From assembly GCA_041741775.1 (NCBI GenBank), contig JBGSJQ010000095.1, forward strand, positions 4,154 to 68,153: a stretch of 64,000 bases of DNA. The letters are read 5' to 3'. The notes below the pieces were generated by a model, which saw only the letters and a list, made by a program, of their open reading frames with translations, searched no databases and had not been told where the DNA came from. Below are positions 28,594 to 37,233 of the stretch, in pieces; within the stretch, counting starts at the first letter, position 1; the number at the start of each line of letters is the position of its first letter. The stretch comes from Terrimicrobiaceae bacterium (GTDB lineage Bacteria > Verrucomicrobiota > Verrucomicrobiia > Chthoniobacterales > Terrimicrobiaceae). Made by a program: the position numbers and the translations under genes.

Positions 28594-30147
28594 TCACTCG
28601 AAAACTCCGTTGTTCAAATACGGATTCAGTGGACCTTCCTCATACTGGTCGCGGGGGTAGGGAATGAAGTCGGTATGGTGAAATTGTTGGGCAACTTCAT
28701 CGGCAAAAAAGGCGCCAAGGGGTGTCAACTCAATGGCGCGGTCGGTCTTCTTCAGGAGCCCGTGGGCCTCCAATTCAGCAAACTTCTTCTGAAAGACCTC
28801 ATTGAGATCGAGACCCGTGAGACGGCGGTAATTCGACGGCCGCACATTCCGGTTTTTGATCGGGAGGACGATGGCCCAGCGGGCCTGGTCCTCCGGCGTG
28901 CGGATGTAGCCACGGTTGATCGGCAGGTGACCGCTTTCCACCAGGGCGTAATACTCGTCAAAGTTCTGTGTCGGCAGCGAAAACCGATCCCGCAGGCTGC
29001 TGAACGCGGTCAGGCCGATCCCGATCTGGTCAAATTGCACACAGCACTGGTTGTGGGCATAGACGGAATAATCCCCCCGGCGTCGGGAGAACACGCGTCG
29101 CAAATTCTCCGTGTAGCCGTAATGGCCGAGCATCTCAATCGCCGACTGCTTCATGATGAATTGATCCTCGTTTGGAGGATACTCCTCGGGCTTGACTTCG
29201 ATGTAGTTTTTCACCGCACCCTGGTGGTCGCCATAGGCCTCGACTTTCAGGCGGTAAAGCTGGATCTCATGCACGCCGAGCTGACAAGCCTCCTCGACCA
29301 CATCCAGCCAGTTTTCGAGGGTCTGGCCGAGATAACCGAAGATGAACTCGATGTTGATCTGGAATCCGGCAGCAAGGGTTTCCTTGATCGCCTGGAACGC
29401 CTCGTCCCGACCATGATGCCGCCCCATTTTTTTCAGCACGGTGGGGTTGAGCGACTGGACGCCGATCGTCAGCCTGTCCACCCCGTATTCCCTCATGATC
29501 TCAAGCCTTTTCTCGCCTTCGGGTCCAATCAGGGTGTTCGGATCAACATCAAAATTGAACTGGCGACAGATGGAAAGGTCGATCCGCTCGCAGAATCCGT
29601 CCATGAACCGTCGGAATTGATCCACCGTCAAGAATGTGGGGGTGCCCCCGCCAACCAGGACAGATCGCGCTTTGATCTTGTCAACGCCCAGCTTCTCCCG
29701 CCAGATATCCATCTCCCGCATAAATGCCTTCAGATACCTGTCCTTTTCCTCAAGCCGGGGCCCCAGAAGGACCGGGTAATGACAAAAAACACAGTGGGAA
29801 TTGCAGAACGGGATGTGTGCATAGACATCCAAAACGCCATCCGGTGGAAGGGTGTATCCGTCCAAAAGCTCATCATCCGTCATCGGCGGATACATCGTGA
29901 TCGGCGGATAATGGACCGAGGGATAAAAATCGCCGTCTTTTTGCAGCAATCCGAGGGACCGCAAATGCTTGAAATCGCTGATCCGACTCCGGGCCCGCTC
30001 GATTAACTGCCGGCGATCCAGAGGCCCCCTGTCCGGCATCGGTGGCGGCGGTTCGTGCGGGAGGAGAAGACGCGGGTTGATTGGCGGACGATCGATCGAT
30101 GCCAGCCGGGCCCAGCCGGAAACGGGTTCTAGGATTGAGCTGCTCAT
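28594..30147 (-). CDS. Radical SAM protein, HemN/HemW (coproporphyrinogen III oxidase-like) family with an N-terminal extension of roughly 100 aa
   Basis: VYAHIPFCNSHCVFCHYP (CxxxCxxC), GGGTPTFL, and a HemN_C-like tail. 517 aa, versus roughly 380-460 aa for typical family members. Confidence 0.85.
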   Translation of the reverse strand: MSSSILEPVSGWARLASIDRPPINPRLLLPHEPPPPMPDRGPLDRRQLIERARSRISDFKHLRSLGLLQKDGDFYPSVHYPPITMYPPMTDDELLDGYTLPPDGVLDVYAHIPFCNSHCVFCHYPVLLGPRLEEKDRYLKAFMREMDIWREKLGVDKIKARSVLVGGGTPTFLTVDQFRRFMDGFCERIDLSICRQFNFDVDPNTLIGPEGEKRLEIMREYGVDRLTIGVQSLNPTVLKKMGRHHGRDEAFQAIKETLAAGFQINIEFIFGYLGQTLENWLDVVEEACQLGVHEIQLYRLKVEAYGDHQGAVKNYIEVKPEEYPPNEDQFIMKQSAIEMLGHYGYTENLRRVFSRRRGDYSVYAHNQCCVQFDQIGIGLTAFSSLRDRFSLPTQNFDEYYALVESGHLPINRGYIRTPEDQARWAIVLPIKNRNVRPSNYRRLTGLDLNEVFQKKFAELEAHGLLKKTDRAIELTPLGAFFADEVAQQFHHTDFIPYPRDQYEEGPLNPYLNNGVFE

Positions 30148-30162: not shown

Positions 30163-31227
30163 TTAGATTAAGGGAGCCGGGCCGAGCTTCAAACCCGCGC
30201 GACGGGCAAGATCACCCATGCGTTTCTCTCCGGGAGTGCAGCGCTCGGTGGAGTAAATCGGGAACAGTTCCCGGAAATTCTCCGGTGTCCCGTCATGGAT
30301 TGTGACCGTGTTTGCACCGGCCATGAGGCCGATCAACTGGCCATCATCACGCGCCTTTTGCAGGCAGCTCGTTGTGGGAATGAGCCGACCGGGCTGCATG
30401 ATCCTCATCACCGCCATCATGTTGAAGACAAGGTCCACGTCTCCCATCGCCTGATCATTGTAAAGGCATCCTTCATTCGGAATGAACACCGTGGAACTCG
30501 TCATCGCAACATCAACATCCCGAAGTAAAAGGAGGTCGTCCACAATGGCGTCGAGCGACTGTCCGGGAAGCCCGATCATGTTCCCCGTTCCCACTTTGAA
30601 CCCCAGATCGATGAGGTCGTTGAGACAAGCCAGTCGCTGGTCGAGCGTGTCGGAGGGCTTCCACGCATGGTAAAGCTCGGGGCTGGAGGACTCGAACTTC
30701 AAGATGTAGCGGTCCGCTCCCGACTCCTTGAGAAACAGATACTGCTCCCGGCTCAGGTTGCCGAGGCAAAGGATGATCTCGCTGTCCGGATGCTTTGACT
30801 TGATCCCCGAAATGCATCGGGCCACATACGCGACGAAGGCCTTCGAATGGTTTTCTCCCGACTGAAAAAGAAAAACCCTCCGCCCTTTCCCATACAATAA
30901 GTCTGCCATTTCGAGAACATCAGCCTCCTTGATCACATAGCGCTTCAGATCGGCCTCTTTATACATGCTGCAATATTTGCAGCTTTGCTGGCAGACATTG
31001 GAAAGCTCGATCACGCTGCGAACTTCCACTTCCTCCGAAGGAAAGGCCGAACTCCGCGCTGCTCTTGCCATCGCAAAAAGAATCTCCTGCTCCTCTCCCC
31101 GGAGCAGGAGAGCTTCGGTAAGAGAGCCTCTGGAAAAATTTCCCATGGAAAGCTCCTCCAAGCACCCGGCATTTTTATGACCTAGATCAATCATTTTGTG
31201 ATGGAATAATATTTTTCGTAAGGGCAT
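30163..31227 (-). CDS. Radical SAM protein, BioB/HydE/PylB-like
   Basis: ELSNVCQQSCKYCSMY (CxxxCxxC), FLFQSGE, GADRYILKFESS and GTGNMIGLPGQS match the HydE/BioB-type TIM-barrel radical SAM pattern. Confidence 0.85.
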   Translation of the reverse strand: MPLRKILFHHKMIDLGHKNAGCLEELSMGNFSRGSLTEALLLRGEEQEILFAMARAARSSAFPSEEVEVRSVIELSNVCQQSCKYCSMYKEADLKRYVIKEADVLEMADLLYGKGRRVFLFQSGENHSKAFVAYVARCISGIKSKHPDSEIILCLGNLSREQYLFLKESGADRYILKFESSSPELYHAWKPSDTLDQRLACLNDLIDLGFKVGTGNMIGLPGQSLDAIVDDLLLLRDVDVAMTSSTVFIPNEGCLYNDQAMGDVDLVFNMMAVMRIMQPGRLIPTTSCLQKARDDGQLIGLMAGANTVTIHDGTPENFRELFPIYSTERCTPGEKRMGDLARRAGLKLGPAPLI

Positions 31228-31271: not shown

Positions 31272-32165
31272 TCAGGCGGGTGCGTAGGCGAAGCAGAGAA
31301 GCACGACACCGAGAGTGGCGACCACAGCCCCGGCTATATCGCGCGCGAAGATCTTCTCCTTGAGGATGGTTGCGGCCAGAGGCAGGACGAGGATGGGTTC
31401 GAGAGAAAGGAGGCTGTTGGCCGGGGCCACATCGAGGTTTTTTACGGCGACCAGAGAAAGCCAGAATCCAGCGAAGGTGATGACGCAGACCGAAAGGATA
31501 AATGGCACCGCGAGTCCCTGCTTGGAGAACGAGGCGGCGGCGGACCCGAGCTGGCGCCTGGCTCCGAGCCAAAGCGACAGGCCGATGAAACCGGCGGACA
31601 TTCTCAGAAAAGTTCCCTCCAGAGCCGAGACCTCAGAAAGAGCCCCCTTTGCCATCACCATCGAAGCCGACATGCAACCGGACGCAAGGAGGCCGTAGAG
31701 GATGCCTTTCCGCGTGGCCGCCTGGGATAATCCACGTTCCTTTGGCCAGAGGACCAGAGACACGCCGCACAGGATGAAAGCCATGCCGATCCAAGCCATG
31801 AGGGCAGGGGTTTCTCCAAGAAACAACATAGCGAGGACCGCAGTGATCACTTGGCCAACCGTGAGAAAAATGACGAGGATTTGGGGGGAGAGCTCCCTCA
31901 AGGCCGCAAAGAAAAGGACATCCGCCACGGCAATCCCCACGATTCCGCTGGCGGCAAGCAACGCAGCATCCGGAAGAGACGGGATTCTCCCGCCAGCGAG
32001 AAGAAGCCCCGCCCCTAAAAACACAACGCTCAGAGCGCACTTTCCAAAGGCCATCACAACCGGAGACAAGCTTTCTCCAAGGCGCTTGAAAAGAATTGCT
32101 CCGACCGCCCATCCGAGTGCCGAACCCAGCCCGGCCGCGATTCCCATCATTTCCCGAGTCATCAT
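31272..32165 (-). CDS. DMT superfamily (EamA-like) transporter
   Basis: 297 aa, about 10 predicted TM helices, duplicated EamA pattern (GSALGWAVGAILFKRLG...). Confidence 0.85.
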   Translation of the reverse strand: MMTREMMGIAAGLGSALGWAVGAILFKRLGESLSPVVMAFGKCALSVVFLGAGLLLAGGRIPSLPDAALLAASGIVGIAVADVLFFAALRELSPQILVIFLTVGQVITAVLAMLFLGETPALMAWIGMAFILCGVSLVLWPKERGLSQAATRKGILYGLLASGCMSASMVMAKGALSEVSALEGTFLRMSAGFIGLSLWLGARRQLGSAAASFSKQGLAVPFILSVCVITFAGFWLSLVAVKNLDVAPANSLLSLEPILVLPLAATILKEKIFARDIAGAVVATLGVVLLCFAYAPA

Positions 32166-32177
32166 AGAAATTACCGA

Positions 32178-32765
32178 CTATCCCTGCGGCGGACCGCCTC
32201 CGGGAGGTCCTCCGCCGGGACCGCCCTGGGAACCGCCGCCGGATCCCTGGGAAGGCTGCGAAGGGGCCTGCTGGCCGTTGTCATCCTTTTTTTTATGCTT
32301 CTTCCCCTTCTTCGGCTGGTTCTGTTCTCTCTGTTGAGCAGGTTGAGCACCGCCACGGAACAAGTTGGGTGATTGCGAGTTGACCGCACCGGAAATTGCC
32401 GCCGCCAAAAAAGGTGCCGCCGCTCTCCCGAAATCCGGATTGGACGGGCCGGGATTTCCCGCATGCCGGGGCGGGGGAGGAGCGTAGCGCGGTTGTTGAA
32501 CGATATACCCGGTCGGAGGTCCGGGGTAGCGCAGCTGTGGGTTCCCGTTGTAAGGGTTCGGCCCCCTACCCGGAGGTGGTGGCACATAGCGGCCGGGACG
32601 TACGTAAAGAGCTCCTCCGGTGCCGCGCACAGACTTCACGGGCACAGACACTCCTGCGGGGATCTCGGAGAAATAACTCGGAGGCAGCTCGCACGATGCC
32701 AACAAGAGTCCCGCGCAGGAAAGACCTACCCAGTATAACGGGTCCACGGCGCGTCCTTCATTCAT
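32178..32765 (-). CDS. Pro/Gly-rich lipoprotein with a basic Lys cluster and a GGPGGGPPGGGPP tail
   Basis: Signal peptide plus lipobox (GLLLASC). The mature part is low-complexity, P/G/Q-rich. Confidence 0.55.
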   Translation of the reverse strand: MNEGRAVDPLYWVGLSCAGLLLASCELPPSYFSEIPAGVSVPVKSVRGTGGALYVRPGRYVPPPPGRGPNPYNGNPQLRYPGPPTGYIVQQPRYAPPPPRHAGNPGPSNPDFGRAAAPFLAAAISGAVNSQSPNLFRGGAQPAQQREQNQPKKGKKHKKKDDNGQQAPSQPSQGSGGGSQGGPGGGPPGGGPPQG

Positions 32766-32786
32766 ACAACTCCCGTCAGCGAAAGA

Positions 32787-33065
32787 TCAATACGGCCCGG
32801 GTCCGCCAAATCCCGGTCCACCACCAGGACCTCCTGGGCCCGGTCCGCCAAATCCCGGCCCACCACCTGGACCTCCTGGGCCCGGTCCGCCAAATCCCGG
32901 CCCACCACCTGGACCTCCTGGGCCCGGTCCGGGACCTGGGCCAGGTCCCACAAGTGCTGCGGGGCCAGGTCCCACGGGGCCGGGAGGAATTACCCAAGGT
33001 TCACAGGACGTAAGAAGAACAGGAACCAAAACGGCTCCAATGAGGATAGGGACGTCAATTTTCAT
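32787..33065 (-). CDS. Small lipoprotein consisting almost entirely of Gly/Pro, with 3 x GGPGPGGPGGGPGF repeats
   Basis: Internal ATG at 33065 gives MKIDVPILIGAVLVPVLLTSC (lipobox L-T-S-C), then G/P repeats to the stop (92 aa). Confidence 0.55.
   Translation of the reverse strand: MKIDVPILIGAVLVPVLLTSCEPWVIPPGPVGPGPAALVGPGPGPGPGPGGPGGGPGFGGPGPGGPGGGPGFGGPGPGGPGGGPGFGGPGPY
32794..32919. repeat. Three 42-bp tandem repeats (copies 2 and 3 identical) plus a partial fourth copy
   Basis: Read directly: unit gggcccggtccgccaaatcccggcccaccacctggacctcct at 32836-32877 and 32878-32919. The first copy (32794-32835) has a few substitutions. Confidence 0.9.
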
Positions 33066-34188
33066 GAGTGGGATTTTTTCGAAATGGTGGTGCGCCCTGA
33101 TCAGCATTCGCGACCTCGGTCTGGTCGGCCTGAAAGACCAACATGTATCGCTGGGGGATAAATTGTTGCGTGTCGACAAGACGGAAACCATATTTGGCGA
33201 GCTGGCCAATGATCAGTTCCTTGGCGATGTAGGGTCCGTGGTAGGGAAGGTTCGAGTCGGCAACGAGTGCATTATCCACCACGACGAAGCGACCCCCGGG
33301 TTTTAGCGCCTTTTTGATGCTGCCAAGGAATCCCGTCAACTCATCCTCTGAGGCCAGCACATACATGATGTGGTAGAGCGAGCACGTCCAAACGAGATCG
33401 ACCTGCGTCTTGAGCCCAATGTTGTCAAGGGCAGATGATGAGACCTCCACGTTCTTGAGTCCGGATCGCCGGGCCAGATCCCGCAAATACTTGACGTGGA
33501 CCTCGTTGATGTCGAGGGCATACACGTGGCCCTCGGCCCCGACTTGCTTCGCAAAAGCAAAGGTATAGAAGCCCGGACCGCAGCCGACGTCCGCGACGGA
33601 ATCTCCTGGTTTGAGTTTGAGCGCGGCGAGAAATTTCGAAGATTGCTCCCAAGCCTCCCGTCTCGGGTTGTTGAAAAGCACATAATCCTGAAGGAAGGCT
33701 TCCCGGCGGACCGCCTCAAATGTATTTTCGTCGCCCAGCTTGCCAAGGTGGTATTTACGGAGCAGGAATTCCTGCAGAAGCTCGTAGTTGTTGCCTCCGA
33801 GGAAGGAATAGTATTCGGAGGTCAGGGGATCTGTGAGCATCGCTTGCCGTTCGGCCTCAGGAACACTGATAATATTGCTGAACCACTGGAGCGCGGTGTA
33901 TTCTCCACCAAAATTCTCGTTCGGGATGAGACTCTCGTAAATGGCGGACGCCTTTTCAGCGGCCTCCTTGTCCCCGGTCCTGACAGCGTCGAGGAGGAGG
34001 CGGGCAGCCGTGATCCCGCCCTCGGTCGTGTCGAAGGAATCGATGCTGCCGAGGTGGACGAGCGATGCGCGGGAGTCCACCCAGATACCCGGCTCGCCCC
34101 TTGCAGAGAACATGAAATACGACGTCCCGAGAAGAGCCAGAATGGCGGCTCCCTTGGGGAAGTCTTTGGGTGCAAAGCGTCCCTTCAT
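33055..34188 (-). CDS. Class I SAM-dependent methyltransferase with an N-terminal signal anchor and a conserved ~200-aa N-domain
   Basis: ADVGCGPGFYTF (motif I), ALKPGGRFVVVD. N-terminal hydrophobic segment AAILALLGTSYFMF. Paralog of 34327-35574. Confidence 0.8.
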   Translation of the reverse strand: MKGRFAPKDFPKGAAILALLGTSYFMFSARGEPGIWVDSRASLVHLGSIDSFDTTEGGITAARLLLDAVRTGDKEAAEKASAIYESLIPNENFGGEYTALQWFSNIISVPEAERQAMLTDPLTSEYYSFLGGNNYELLQEFLLRKYHLGKLGDENTFEAVRREAFLQDYVLFNNPRREAWEQSSKFLAALKLKPGDSVADVGCGPGFYTFAFAKQVGAEGHVYALDINEVHVKYLRDLARRSGLKNVEVSSSALDNIGLKTQVDLVWTCSLYHIMYVLASEDELTGFLGSIKKALKPGGRFVVVDNALVADSNLPYHGPYIAKELIIGQLAKYGFRLVDTQQFIPQRYMLVFQADQTEVANADQGAPPFRKNPTHEN

Positions 34189-34326
34189 AAAAACCGGGAT
34201 TTTTCAACGCATTTCCATTCAGGGCTCATTGGACGCCTTCCGTTTATTCCTTGGGACGTGCTAAATCAAACACATTTTCGGCAGATTTGCCTCGTCTTTT
34301 TCAAATATATTCCTCTAACAAGGCGG

Positions 34327-35574
34327 ATGATGAAACTCCCGGCTTTCACCGCACTGGCTCTCTTCTGCGCTACAGTGCTCCCGAGCGCACACGTCCTCTC
34401 GCAATCCACGGCGCCGACTCCGGCCCCGAGCGGCAGCGTTTTTGTGCCGATCACCTCCAGGGCCTCGCTTATCGCGTTTCCCAATCACCAAAAGCCCATC
34501 GTTTCAAAAGCAGGCTCGAAGGCGGCGGCGGTTTTTTACGAAGCCCTCGACACGGGGGACAAGGCGAAAGCGGCGGAAGCCCACGCCCTGTTCCGCGGGC
34601 TTGTGGAGAAGGAGTCGTTTGGCAATGAATACCTCGCTTTCATTTGGTTCTGCGACTACCTGATGGCCGGGCCGGACGCGCGCAAGGCCATGCTCACCGA
34701 CCCTATCACCAAGGCCTATTTCGAATTCCTGGGCGGCGACAACTTCAAGATCCTCAAAATCTATCTTCGGACGTCGTTCGGCGTCGCGGGAAAAGGGGCT
34801 GTGGCCGAGGCTGAACCTTCGCCGGGATCCGACCAGCCCGAGCCTGTTAAGAAACTGCGCGTGCTTTTTGGCTTGGAGCCTGCACGGGTTACCCCGGCCG
34901 ACGAACACAAGGAGGAGAATGCCACGCCCGACCTGCCCCCGCCCCGCGAAGTGGTTGGCGGGGTCAGCGAAGAGGACGTCGCCTTCTGGCGTGATTTCAT
35001 TCTTTTCAACAACCCTCTGCGCCCAGTGTGGGAAAAAACCGACGGCATCCTGAACCTCGTTCATATCCAGCCCGGCGAAACCGTGCTTGATATCGGATGC
35101 GGCCCCGGGTTCTTTTCCATGCGCTTCTCGAAAATGGTCGGCCCGGACGGAAAAATCTTTGCCATCGACACGAATGAAAAGCACCTCGAGTTTTTAGCCA
35201 CCCTGATCTCCAGCACGGGCGCGAAAAATATCGAGACGGTCCGGTCGAAATTCGACGACGTTTGCGTGCCGGAGCATAGTGTGGACCGCGCGTTTATGTG
35301 CTCGCTCTACAGCGTCATCTACATCGTTTCCATGGAGCAGGTGAAAGATCGTTTCATTGCCAGCATCCGAAAGGCGCTCAAGCCGGGCGGAAAGCTGATC
35401 ATTGTGGACAATAATGCGGTCGTTCCGGAAGGAGTCGTCCCCTACCATGGCTCCCGGATCGAGCCCTCCCTCGTCATCGCTCAATTGTCTCACTACGGGT
35501 TTAAGCTTGTCAACCAGCAGCAAATCATCCCCCAGCGCTATCTCCTCGAATTCGAGCGAGATGCGGCAGATTGA
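34327..35574 (+). CDS. Class I SAM-dependent methyltransferase with a cleavable-type signal peptide (paralog of 33055-34188)
   Basis: Internal ATG at 34327 gives MMKLPAFTALALFCATVLPSAHVLSQ. LDIGCGPGFFSM and ALKPGGKLIIVD. Shared blocks include AMLTDP(L/I)T..Y..FLGG(N/D)N and IPQRY(M/L)L. Confidence 0.8.
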   Translation: MMKLPAFTALALFCATVLPSAHVLSQSTAPTPAPSGSVFVPITSRASLIAFPNHQKPIVSKAGSKAAAVFYEALDTGDKAKAAEAHALFRGLVEKESFGNEYLAFIWFCDYLMAGPDARKAMLTDPITKAYFEFLGGDNFKILKIYLRTSFGVAGKGAVAEAEPSPGSDQPEPVKKLRVLFGLEPARVTPADEHKEENATPDLPPPREVVGGVSEEDVAFWRDFILFNNPLRPVWEKTDGILNLVHIQPGETVLDIGCGPGFFSMRFSKMVGPDGKIFAIDTNEKHLEFLATLISSTGAKNIETVRSKFDDVCVPEHSVDRAFMCSLYSVIYIVSMEQVKDRFIASIRKALKPGGKLIIVDNNAVVPEGVVPYHGSRIEPSLVIAQLSHYGFKLVNQQQIIPQRYLLEFERDAAD

Positions 35575-35576
35575 TC

Positions 35577-36185
35577 CTACCCGCCGCTCACTGCGACGTG
35601 TCCATCGGCATAAACGGCATTCCTTCGACCGGGTCCCTCCGCAGAATCAGAGCTGGCCTGGGTGCTGTAGTGGACACCGTTCCAGTCAATCACGAGCCGG
35701 GCCTGCGAATTCGGGGTGTCCACCAAGGAGCCCCCCTCGATGAGTAGCTTGAGATTCCCGAGCTTGTCGCCGTCGAAGTAGTGCAGCCATTGGTAGCTCG
35801 ATCCGAGTCTGGAATACTGGTTGTAGATGCTGTTCACATCGGCTGGGCATTTCAATGTTTCCTTGGTGAGCCCGTAGGGAGACAGCTTTTCGAGAAAAAG
35901 TGCTCCGTAGCCAGGATCGGCCGTGTTCGGCATGCCCGTCGGGATCTCATTCCCGTTGTCCTGCGTGCACAGCAGGGCCGCCATGCCGATCTGTCGAAGA
36001 TTGCCAAGGCACTTCGCGTTCCATGACGCTTCGTAAATCCTTTGAAGATTCGGAAAAACCATGGCGATGAGCACCCCGATGATCGCCAGAGTGATGAGCA
36101 TCTCCACCAGCGTGAAACCTCGCCGGAAACAGGCGGCAAAATCGGAAGCCCTATTCACTTGAGCCTTTTTTTTCAAGATAAGCAT
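35577..36185 (-). CDS. Prepilin-type N-terminal domain protein with a C-terminal H-X9-DG motif (DUF1559-like pseudopilin)
   Basis: RRGFTLVEMLITLAIIGVLIAMVFP, and the C-terminus HYSTQ...NAVYADGHVAV. An alternative GTG start at 36158 would remove the 35-nt overlap with the upstream gene. Confidence 0.8.
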   Translation of the reverse strand: MLILKKKAQVNRASDFAACFRRGFTLVEMLITLAIIGVLIAMVFPNLQRIYEASWNAKCLGNLRQIGMAALLCTQDNGNEIPTGMPNTADPGYGALFLEKLSPYGLTKETLKCPADVNSIYNQYSRLGSSYQWLHYFDGDKLGNLKLLIEGGSLVDTPNSQARLVIDWNGVHYSTQASSDSAEGPGRRNAVYADGHVAVSGG

Positions 36186-37233
36186 CGAAAAATTCCGATC
36201 GCTGTGTCGGGTCCATCGTTGATTCCAGGTTTTCAATATACCTCTCGGCGCTGTTCTCGCCCGAGCTTCCCGGCGGTGATCCCTCCCCACCCGATCCGCC
36301 GGGAGGCGGACCGCCGCCCGGACCACCCGGAAGCTGGATTTTCTGCGAAAAGATGGCGGCCTGCTCGGGCGGGGGTAATTCCTTAAGCGTTTCGAGAAGA
36401 GCCTCCATTTCGGCGATTTTCTCGTTCGCCTCTGCCCTGCGGTTGGCAGGCAGTTCGCCAATCCGGCTTTTCAGAAACGCGACGATCTCGTGCGGGTTGG
36501 GCGGCCCTCCGCCGTTCTGGTCGCGGGTTCCTCCAGGCGGCGGAGGCGGAGGCGGTCCTCCTCCCGGGCCGCGGGGATGGTCCGGTCCGCCGGGCCCCCC
36601 CTCACCCCGGGCGATCAGCATGGCGCACTCCTTACACTTCATGCCGGAACTCTTCGCAAGGCTGCGAAGCACGCGGTCCACAGTGCCAGAAGCTGGCGGC
36701 TTGGCGACCGGAATGGCGCCGTCACCTGAGAGCATAATGCAGAGCCCGGTATGCACGCTCGCCTGCTCCAAATAGGCGGCAATGGTGCCGTCGGTCTCCG
36801 GCTCGACAACCCACTCGTCAACTTTCGGATGGACCTTCGGTGGTCCGACCATCGGGCCCTGAAGTTGAAACCACGTGCCTTGGAACGCTCCCTTTTCCCA
36901 GGATTCCAAAGAATCGTTCAATGCCTTGGAATTCGGGGCGAACGCGTAAGCGATACGAAACTCGGCTCTGACGGCCCCTCCCAAGGCCCGGAGGGCATTC
37001 AGGACCGGAGCCCTGACCAGCTGCAATGTAACGGGGGTGGCCGGGTCGAGGTTCGACCGGATGTGTATCTTTCCCTGGTGCTCGAACGAGCGGATCACCT
37101 CCGCCAGCGGCATCCCGCTCGCGTTGATCGTGATCGTCCGGGGAGCGAGAACCCCAGAGGCGAGTATCCCCACAAGCACAAGGAGAACAAAAAAAAGAAC
37201 CCAGGTGCGCCGCTGATTTGCTTTGGCTATCAT
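36151..37233 (-). CDS. Membrane-anchored protein with an STN/secretin-N-like domain and two Gly/Pro-rich linkers
   Basis: Internal ATG at 37233 (MIAKANQRRTWVLFFVLLVLVGILASG). ITINASGMPLAEVIRSFEHQGKIHI...VTLQLVRAPVLNALRAL resembles STN-type domains. Linkers are GGPGGPDHPRGPGGGPPPPPPPGG and PGGPGGGPPPGGSGG. Confidence 0.6.
   Translation of the reverse strand: MIAKANQRRTWVLFFVLLVLVGILASGVLAPRTITINASGMPLAEVIRSFEHQGKIHIRSNLDPATPVTLQLVRAPVLNALRALGGAVRAEFRIAYAFAPNSKALNDSLESWEKGAFQGTWFQLQGPMVGPPKVHPKVDEWVVEPETDGTIAAYLEQASVHTGLCIMLSGDGAIPVAKPPASGTVDRVLRSLAKSSGMKCKECAMLIARGEGGPGGPDHPRGPGGGPPPPPPPGGTRDQNGGGPPNPHEIVAFLKSRIGELPANRRAEANEKIAEMEALLETLKELPPPEQAAIFSQKIQLPGGPGGGPPPGGSGGEGSPPGSSGENSAERYIENLESTMDPTQRSEFFDAYLEKKGSSE

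Follow-up and report, generated by a model that had tools for sequence, protein, structure and literature searches.

Elastomeric repeats of the GPGxx kind are known from spider flagelliform and MaSp2 silks and from elastin-like sequences. In the bacterial cell envelope, Pro-rich segments span the periplasm in TonB and TolA and form a hinge in OmpA, size-variable repeat lipoproteins are represented by Vlp and Vsa of mycoplasmas, and LanI-type immunity lipoproteins are encoded in lantibiotic operons beside the LanFEG exporters; amongst the latter, NisI and SpaI are folded and bind a known peptide. Here we describe two tandem open reading frames (ORFs) for predicted Gly/Pro-rich lipoproteins, termed GP92 and LP195 for their lengths in amino acids (aa), at positions 32178-33065 of a 64,000-nucleotide (nt) stretch (the window) of contig JBGSJQ010000095.1 from a Terrimicrobiaceae bacterium (assembly GCA_041741775.1). 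Both lie in an operon that encodes methyltransferase, carrier and radical S-adenosylmethionine (SAM) enzymes, referred to below as the module. Disordered linkers following the lipidated Cys are described for outer-membrane lipoproteins of E. coli and other Gram-negative bacteria (bioRxiv 10.1101/2021.01.05.425367).

The reading that we favour, with confidence that is evenly balanced, is that GP92 and LP195 are real, lineage-specific and fast-evolving disordered lipoproteins that supply a Gly/Pro tract to the export side of the module. The association between such tracts and the module across phyla is new here and is the part most worth following. Literature searches aimed at such a lipoprotein, at the module and at low-complexity tracts of exporters returned no description of a bacterial lipoprotein made almost purely of Gly and Pro, and none that links a low-complexity tract to this module.

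Two predicted Gly/Pro-rich lipoprotein ORFs in a tightly packed operon

The original prediction, made from the sequence alone, had placed two tandem Gly/Pro-rich lipoproteins at this site, and both ORFs are found there on the minus strand with the following features.

32787..33065, minus strand: GP92, a 92-aa ORF with a signal peptide, the lipobox LTS-C21 and a mature chain of 72 aa, 81% of them Gly or Pro
33003..33065, minus strand: GP92 signal peptide and lipobox, residues 1-21 (MKIDVPILIGAVLVPVLLTS followed by C), matching PROSITE PS51257
32794..32931, minus strand: tandem array of a 42-bp unit in 3.3 copies, coding for 3 x GPGPGGPGGGPGFG (96% matches in Tandem Repeats Finder)
32178..32765, minus strand: LP195, a 195-aa ORF with a signal peptide and the lipobox LAS-C25
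32691..32765, minus strand: LP195 signal peptide and lipobox, residues 1-25 (MNEGRAVDPLYWVGLSCAGLLLAS-C), matching PS51257
32181..32315, minus strand: LP195 C-terminal basic cluster and Gly/Pro tail, KKGKKHKKKDD...GGPGGGPPGGGPPQG

GP92 opens with MKIDVPILIGAVLVPVLLTSC... and LP195 with MNEGRAVDPLYWVGLSCAGLLLASC..., and Cys21 and Cys25, respectively, are the candidates for lipidation. The PS51257 rule asks for Lys or Arg in the first 7 residues, an uncharged h-region and a Cys at 15-35 within the lipobox pattern [LIVMFWSTAG]2-[LIVMFYSTAGCQ]-[AGS]-C. Both proteins pass it at these cysteines, and the pass rate across the whole genome is 244 of 36,789 ATG starts with at least 60 downstream codons (0.66%, real lipoproteins counted in). 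The mature GP92 chain consists of 49% Gly and 32% Pro, contains a single Glu and no Lys, Arg, Ser, Thr or Asn, and terminates in ...GPGFGGPGPY. Mature LP195 comprises 171 residues, with a first half rich in Pro, Tyr and Arg that is followed by a short hydrophobic helix or stretch (AAAPFLAAAISGAV), the KKGKKHKKK cluster and the tail; its C-terminal part reads ...KKGKKHKKKDDNGQQ...GGPGGGPPGGGPPQG and its last residues are ...GGGPPQG. The sequence of this tail was confirmed as originally given.

A stretch of 63 nt in the GP92 array is exact at lag 42, and two 42-bp copies are therefore identical, as the original prediction had it. Copy 3 differs by two substitutions only (CCA>CCT and GGG>GGA), both synonymous in the GP92 frame, and the array looks young, in line with the recent expansion or contraction that had been proposed. 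The claim of three perfect repeat units holds in the register GPGPGGPGGGPGFG, which occurs exactly three times, but in the register first given there are two exact copies and one with an altered first residue. A density of 24 Gly+Pro in 30 residues is reached at no other place in the 3.2-Mb genome, and the Gly/Pro density of the region is more than chance. No second occurrence of the 42-bp unit was found across the genome and an Rfam search with the repeat gave no match of note, and a dispersed DNA element or RNA gene was rejected on these two grounds. The plus-strand frame across the repeat is likewise Gly/Pro (PGPPNPGPPPG). An antisense reading was set aside, as no ATG, GTG or TTG precedes the repeat and its direction opposes the operon; the sense and antisense Gly/Pro frames share wobble positions, so that codon-position statistics cannot tell them apart.

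Structure prediction with AlphaFold2 (no alignment) gave LP195 a mean predicted local distance difference test (pLDDT) score of 51.6 and a predicted template modelling (pTM) score of 0.17, with at most one short helix past the signal. The mean pLDDT of GP92 was 59.9, with confidence for the signal helix only. Its Gly/Pro part scored 46-56 with no regular structure, in a single-sequence model that is weak evidence on polyglycine-II (PGII) or polyproline-II (PPII) bundles of the kind seen in snow-flea antifreeze proteins and at the tip of a phage adhesin. Outside the signal helices both bodies are predicted to be disordered, which agrees with one of the possibilities raised in the original prediction.

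The surrounding genes are as follows.

33055..34188, minus strand: class I SAM methyltransferase of 377 aa with an N-terminal signal anchor (Pfam Methyltransf_31/25/11), the first gene of the minus-strand run
31272..32165, minus strand: EamA-family carrier (Pfam EamA, E = 1.4e-36), directly downstream of LP195
30163..31227, minus strand: HydE/BioB-like radical-SAM enzyme (TIGR03956, 203 bits, under the 254.6-bit cut-off)
28594..30147, minus strand: HemN-like radical-SAM enzyme with a HemN_C domain (Pfam, NCBIfam)
34387..35574, plus strand: paralogous methyltransferase with a signal peptide, divergently transcribed

The ATG of GP92 lies inside the final codons of the methyltransferase gene, with an 11-nt overlap with its stop. 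The gap from the GP92 stop to the LP195 start is 21 nt, and that from the LP195 end to the first EamA ATG is 12 nt. Inside the minus-strand run, no promoter- or terminator-like sites were found above shuffled expectation. In a relative of the same order only 8 nt, and no insert, separate the methyltransferase gene from that of EamA, and the 890 bp carrying GP92 and LP195 therefore represent an insertion at a junction that is otherwise closed. The module is absent from all 16 congeners, and the HemN-like enzyme shares 78-81% identity with those of module loci in Chthoniobacterales and Verrucomicrobiaceae. The 297-aa reading of EamA used here (first ATG) differs from the deposited version.

Neither protein has a recognized relative. 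A search of 1.84 billion representative proteins with LP195 returned the self-match only, and no GP92 homologue was found among the 8,000 best word-sharing candidates of 5.8 billion clusters, a result that means none detectable, as bias filters may mask other low-complexity proteins. Relatives of the two proteins were likewise missing from 40 genomes of the same order (16 of them of the same genus), from a plasmid search and from the module loci described below (0/80). The known clusters of GP92 and LP195 have one member each, from a single contig, and no second assembly holds either gene. The view that no characterised bacterial lipoprotein class of this kind exists is consistent with Pfam and NCBIfam, which returned no family for either protein at E <= 0.01. 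The original prediction had suggested a search for GPGG-repeat lipoproteins in PVC genomes. Across 400 other genomes of the phylum, the GPGGPGGGP-coding pattern came out at chance level: it matched in 5 genomes, all of them module-less, and the reversed control pattern matched in 7.

Several described categories were considered and rejected. Collagen-like proteins (PF01391) gave no Pfam match, and the 14-residue unit is not a multiple of 3 and has GG and GGG runs. Neither protein matched the profiles of glycine-zipper lipoproteins (PF05433 Rick_17kDa_Anti, PF13488 and PF13441), and C-terminal sorting tags (PGF-CTERM, PEP-CTERM and GlyGly-CTERM) were dismissed for want of a terminal hydrophobic helix and of an NCBIfam match. 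A ribosomally made modified-peptide precursor was also discarded: both proteins open with Sec/lipoprotein signals, and the tracts found elsewhere sit in permeases and adaptors.

Gly/Pro tracts beside the module in other phyla

Relatives of the methyltransferase, with 41-55% identity, were found at 80 loci that span Verrucomicrobiota, Crocosphaera, Allochromatium, Chlorobiaceae, Lentisphaerae/Kiritimatiellia, Bacteroidales, many Clostridia and several methanogens, and nearly all of them adjoin a second methyltransferase and a HemN-like enzyme. The diderm versions usually include the HydE-like enzyme and EamA as well, the latter beside the methyltransferase, and their methyltransferases carry signal peptides; the versions of Firmicutes and methanogens have neither EamA nor these signal peptides. 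The EamA carrier may supply the periplasmic methyltransferases with SAM or substrate.

These loci were scanned for Gly/Pro-rich ORF segments, and matches were obtained in very different genomes, some with a guanine-plus-cytosine (GC) content of only 31-42%. The carriers are mutually non-homologous and belong to at least seven lineages (cyanobacteria, Proteobacteria, Firmicutes, Bacteroidales, Chlorobi, Lentisphaerae and methanogens). All of the tracts listed below but one (L063) are located on the outer side of the membrane by topology, and several carriers abut module genes on the same strand. GP92 and LP195, with threshold sites at C95:36333 and C95:37056, fall within the category that we propose here, the accessory Gly/Pro tract, which has Gly or Pro at no fewer than 12 of 15 residues, is extracytoplasmic and lies in or beside the module.

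Amongst the carriers are components of exporters. HlyD-type adaptors with C-terminal Gly/Pro tails were identified in Crocosphaera, Chlorobiaceae and Lentisphaeraceae, and the tail of the module-adjacent adaptor in Crocosphaera, ...GGSNQGPPGGGPPGGGPPGSGPPGGGPPQ, strikingly resembles that of LP195. FtsX permeases carry tracts in both outward-facing loops in Clostridia and just past the first helix in Methanoculleus and Methanosarcinales. Other carriers are small secreted or anchored proteins. These include an 80-aa single-helix protein (...RSHGGPGQGPGGPGMGPGQGPGG...) encoded directly 3' of the HemN-like gene at six Lachnospiraceae loci, a 120-140-aa secreted protein (...RGPGGPGFYPGPGPGPGPGP...) in two Allochromatium species and a gammaproteobacterial metagenome-assembled genome (MAG), and, in two Chthoniobacteraceae, a protein that joins a signal peptide and a Gly/Pro segment to a peptidoglycan-binding domain (Pfam). 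A signal-peptide family of about 250 aa with a GPGM/GPGQ linker occurs at seven Bacteroidales loci (L082, L087, L088, L090, L092, L093 and L096). This family is specific to Bacteroidales, has no Pfam match and is encoded 1-5 kb from the module, and its GPGM/GPGQ-rich linker separates two conserved parts.

A membrane-anchored helical family (~250-300 aa) ends in a Gly/Pro tail, ...PTGPGGPGPGGPGGPGPGGPPPRRN, in a Victivallales, a Lentisphaeraceae and a deltaproteobacterial MAG (L023, L029 and L041). The members from Allochromatium and the gammaproteobacterial MAG are tailless, and the module in these genomes is flanked by a gene for a separate, small secreted Gly/Pro protein. At the gammaproteobacterial loci, the gene of the helical family lies between those for the methyltransferase and EamA, which is the slot taken by GP92 and LP195. 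The family itself (250-310 aa, with a weak TPR_6 match only) is undescribed and constitutes a recurrent extra module gene in Proteobacteria and Lentisphaerae/Kiritimatiellia (L023:10972-11724, L025:11158-12087, L027:41-931, L029:4274-5158, L032:11074-12000, L036:11075-12004 and L041:4213-5085).

Forty 20-kb regions on the same contigs, each at least 30 kb from the module, served as controls. Tracts, scored as 12 or more Gly+Pro in 15 residues within an ORF no shorter than 40 aa, were present at 10 of the 17 loci whose contigs measure 100 kb or more and in none of the 40 controls (Fisher p = 4.5e-7), and at 17 of all 80 loci (p = 5e-4), statistics that ignore kinship among loci that are phylogenetically non-independent. 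The enrichment picture is unchanged at thresholds from 10 to 13 of 15; both the long-contig subset and the thresholds were chosen after a first look at the data. Comparison within protein families pointed the same way. Amongst 30 FtsX paralogues from eight genomes, two of the three module-adjacent ones score 12-13 of 15 and no other exceeds 8, and amongst about 30 HlyD paralogues from three genomes the module-adjacent ones reach 14 and 11 of 15, with one other reaching 10. The genome under study has seven sites at threshold, three of them within 32180-36576 of the window.

The same motif had been noted in a third protein 3 kb away, of 360 aa, at 36151-37233, and taken as a sign of a locus-wide theme. 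PGGPGGGPPP is indeed present in this protein, together with GPGGGPPPPPPPGG, but its Gly-rich linker is a family trait and the theme is therefore in part coincidence; the protein was dropped from it on this ground. The family was found in 27 of 41 relatives, almost all module-less, where the corresponding linker is rich in Gly, Arg and Asp, and another contig of the same genome holds a paralogue (C80:2484-3356). Across the family (L199-L209) the linker is always Gly-rich and usually charged. In the window copy it consists almost wholly of Gly and Pro, and part of the charged C-terminal helices has given way to a second tract of this kind. This anchored protein and the H-X9-DG pseudopilin after it (35577-36170) form a pair that is conserved within the taxonomic order and found again in L207.

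Two further observations concern the methyltransferases. Within NCBIfam, the enzyme at 33055-34188 is most similar to arsenite methyltransferase models (56 bits, far below the 263-bit cut-off), and among solved structures the closest is 3DH0, an unnamed SAM-dependent methyltransferase; its 170-aa N-terminal domain is covered by neither. In most lineages the two methyltransferases are fused in one frame of ~700-1000 aa (L032, L085, L087, L029, L048, L054, L080 and others), unlike the split and divergently oriented genes of the window.

A possible role on the export side

In the reading that we favour, GP92 and LP195 would have arisen within the conserved operon of two methyltransferases, EamA and the HydE-like and HemN-like radical-SAM enzymes, and would be co-transcribed with it, exported through Sec and lipidated at Cys21 and Cys25. 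The membrane-tethered chains, uncharged in GP92, basic in LP195 and without fixed structure in both, would reach into the periplasm, and the 72 mature residues of GP92 would extend to ~20 nm if they formed an extended polyproline-II chain. The two proteins would be this species' form of a recurrent module accessory, an extracytoplasmic Gly/Pro tract of the GPG-x type, which in other phyla would be fused to a module-adjacent exporter (an adaptor C-terminus or FtsX loops) or carried on small anchored proteins. Composition and location, rather than sequence, would be under selection, and the tract would lengthen by in-frame repeat slippage. Its most likely place of action is the export side of the module, where, flexible and uncharged, it would come into contact with the emerging product and handle or retain it at the membrane surface. 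We favour this placement because the tracts share the compartment of the export machinery and not that of the enzymes, and because GP92 is almost without modifiable side chains.

A number of points weigh against this reading, in addition to the kinship of the loci and the post hoc choices given with the statistics above. GP92 is missing from the public protein collection in all 4 start variants tried, and it probably lacks annotation in the deposited genome. Its GC content at third codon positions is 0.39, where long ORFs in this genome average 0.73, and it has a negative score for synonymous codons; that of LP195 is roughly neutral. Several frames are open across the GC-rich repeat, so open frames are cheap there, and purifying selection is not measurable because GP92 and LP195 have no homologues. 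Additionally, the tract is not universal, as the close module relatives L031, L040 and L044 have none within 10 kb, nor is it exclusive, since a small secreted GPGMHRGPGGPGGGP-repeat protein and a tract-bearing FtsX-like permease occur in module-less genomes of the phylum. Finally, the role of the tract in product handling is one that we purely infer. The GPGMHRGPGGPGGGP-repeat protein (L212; G250:C117:2-403, minus strand) is a possible lipoprotein (...LVASCAC...) that is cut by the contig end.

The unannotated state of GP92, its atypical wobble composition and codon usage, its lack of a homologue and the many open frames would all be expected if one or both ORFs, GP92 above all, were non-functional, the product of a recent expansion of GC-rich repeats within an inserted spacer that by chance stays open and has a hydrophobic start. 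We find this doubtful. Two neighbouring lipobox matches would arise by chance with a probability of ~3e-4 or less, GP92 begins in overlap with the stop of the upstream gene, the two ORFs exactly occupy the gap, and the differences between repeat copies are synonymous. LP195, moreover, is annotated in the public record with an exactly identical sequence, and its tail is of the same kind as those of module-adjacent proteins elsewhere. On balance, LP195 is likely to be an expressed protein, and GP92 is too, though slightly less so.

The proteins could also be real disordered lipoproteins that act as generic envelope spacers or tethers and were inserted into the operon by happenstance, with no functional tie to it. 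Similar secreted Gly/Pro proteins and permease loops in module-less genomes are in keeping with this explanation, as are the linker of the third Gly/Pro protein, which stems from its own family and not from the module, and the close module relatives with no nearby tract. It is nevertheless improbable in our judgement, as the ORFs occupy a slot between genes otherwise 8 nt apart with overlapping or near-abutting junctions, which implies co-expression, and as the enrichment is strong in both comparisons, with control regions from the same contigs and with paralogues within each protein family.

The functional tie to the radical-SAM and methyltransferase genes that the original prediction had suggested is upheld in part: gene packing and the cross-phylum enrichment of tracts speak for a tie, but the form in which it was proposed, in which the enzymes encoded nearby would modify the Gly/Pro chains as they do in clusters for peptide modification, fits poorly. 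GP92 and LP195 are encoded between these enzymes, and the signal-peptide-bearing methyltransferases of diderms share the periplasm with the tracts. Modification of extracytoplasmic disordered Ser/Thr-rich regions by locally encoded enzymes is described for streptococci (PMC12041528). Nonetheless, the methyltransferases of Firmicutes and methanogens have no signal peptide while the tracts lie outside the membrane, in many cases as loops of ATP-binding cassette (ABC) permeases, the radical-SAM enzymes of the window have no export signal in their translations, and mature GP92 offers almost no side chains to modify. The proposed link to the glycosyltransferases finds no support either, and mature GP92 is devoid of Ser, Thr and Asn. 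An enzyme substrate is thus an unlikely role for the tract, and amongst the explanations considered here it is the one to which we give the least credence. A docking site for exported methyltransferases was dropped as a main idea, given that the methyltransferases are cytoplasmic in Firmicutes and methanogens. We would rank both substrate and docking below an export-side role.

A bolder version of the export-side reading, which we put forward as a speculation unlikely to hold in full, is that the tract is a convergently acquired, composition-defined functional element of an uncharacterised cross-domain radical-SAM/methyltransferase export system. It would form an uncharged GPG-x 'brush' or cohesive phase at the outer membrane face, where the product of the module would be captured, retained or gated, and would here have become two free-standing lipoproteins born de novo by repeat expansion. 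If true, this would be the first biosynthetic module defined partly by a low-complexity sequence grammar and not by a protein family.

Implications and comparison with known systems

If the favoured reading is true, homology searches miss a real component of a module that extends from cyanobacteria to gut Firmicutes and methanogens, because composition and location are conserved and sequence is not. The tract would then mark the export side and provide a handle on an uncharacterised radical-SAM/methyltransferase system, and the locus would be a clean example of gene birth through repeat expansion within an operon. A further suggestion is to score tracts of low complexity in the vicinity of biosynthetic clusters as features instead of masking them.

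Compared with the outer-membrane lipoprotein linkers (bioRxiv 10.1101/2021.01.05.425367), the likeness lies in a lipidated Cys followed by an unstructured segment that leads into the periplasm. Those linkers, however, lead to a folded domain, whereas GP92 is linker only and nearly pure Gly/Pro. With flagelliform and MaSp2 silk and elastin-like sequences, GP92 shares a grammar of GPGG-x, GPGQ and GPGF/Y, the lack of charge and the tandem repeats, but there is no homology, and GP92 has 3 units where the silks have hundreds and is predicted to be lipid-anchored and periplasmic. TonB, TolA and OmpA resemble the present proteins in having an extended, rigid-flexible segment of low complexity that bridges envelope layers; their segments are charged (Glu-Pro, Lys-Pro) and join functional domains, in contrast to GP92 and LP195, which have no Pfam domains.

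The lipoproteins of the Vlp and Vsa systems are similar in that the lipoprotein body is an in-frame tandem repeat able to grow and shrink by slippage. GP92 differs from them in composition, is encoded in a biosynthetic operon and not in a phase-variable locus, and is known from one assembly. Finally, the LanI-type proteins offer a parallel in genomic setting, as they too are small, cluster-specific and non-conserved lipoproteins of a biosynthetic and export operon that lie on the outer face of the membrane, but NisI and SpaI are folded, whereas GP92 and LP195 are predicted to be disordered.

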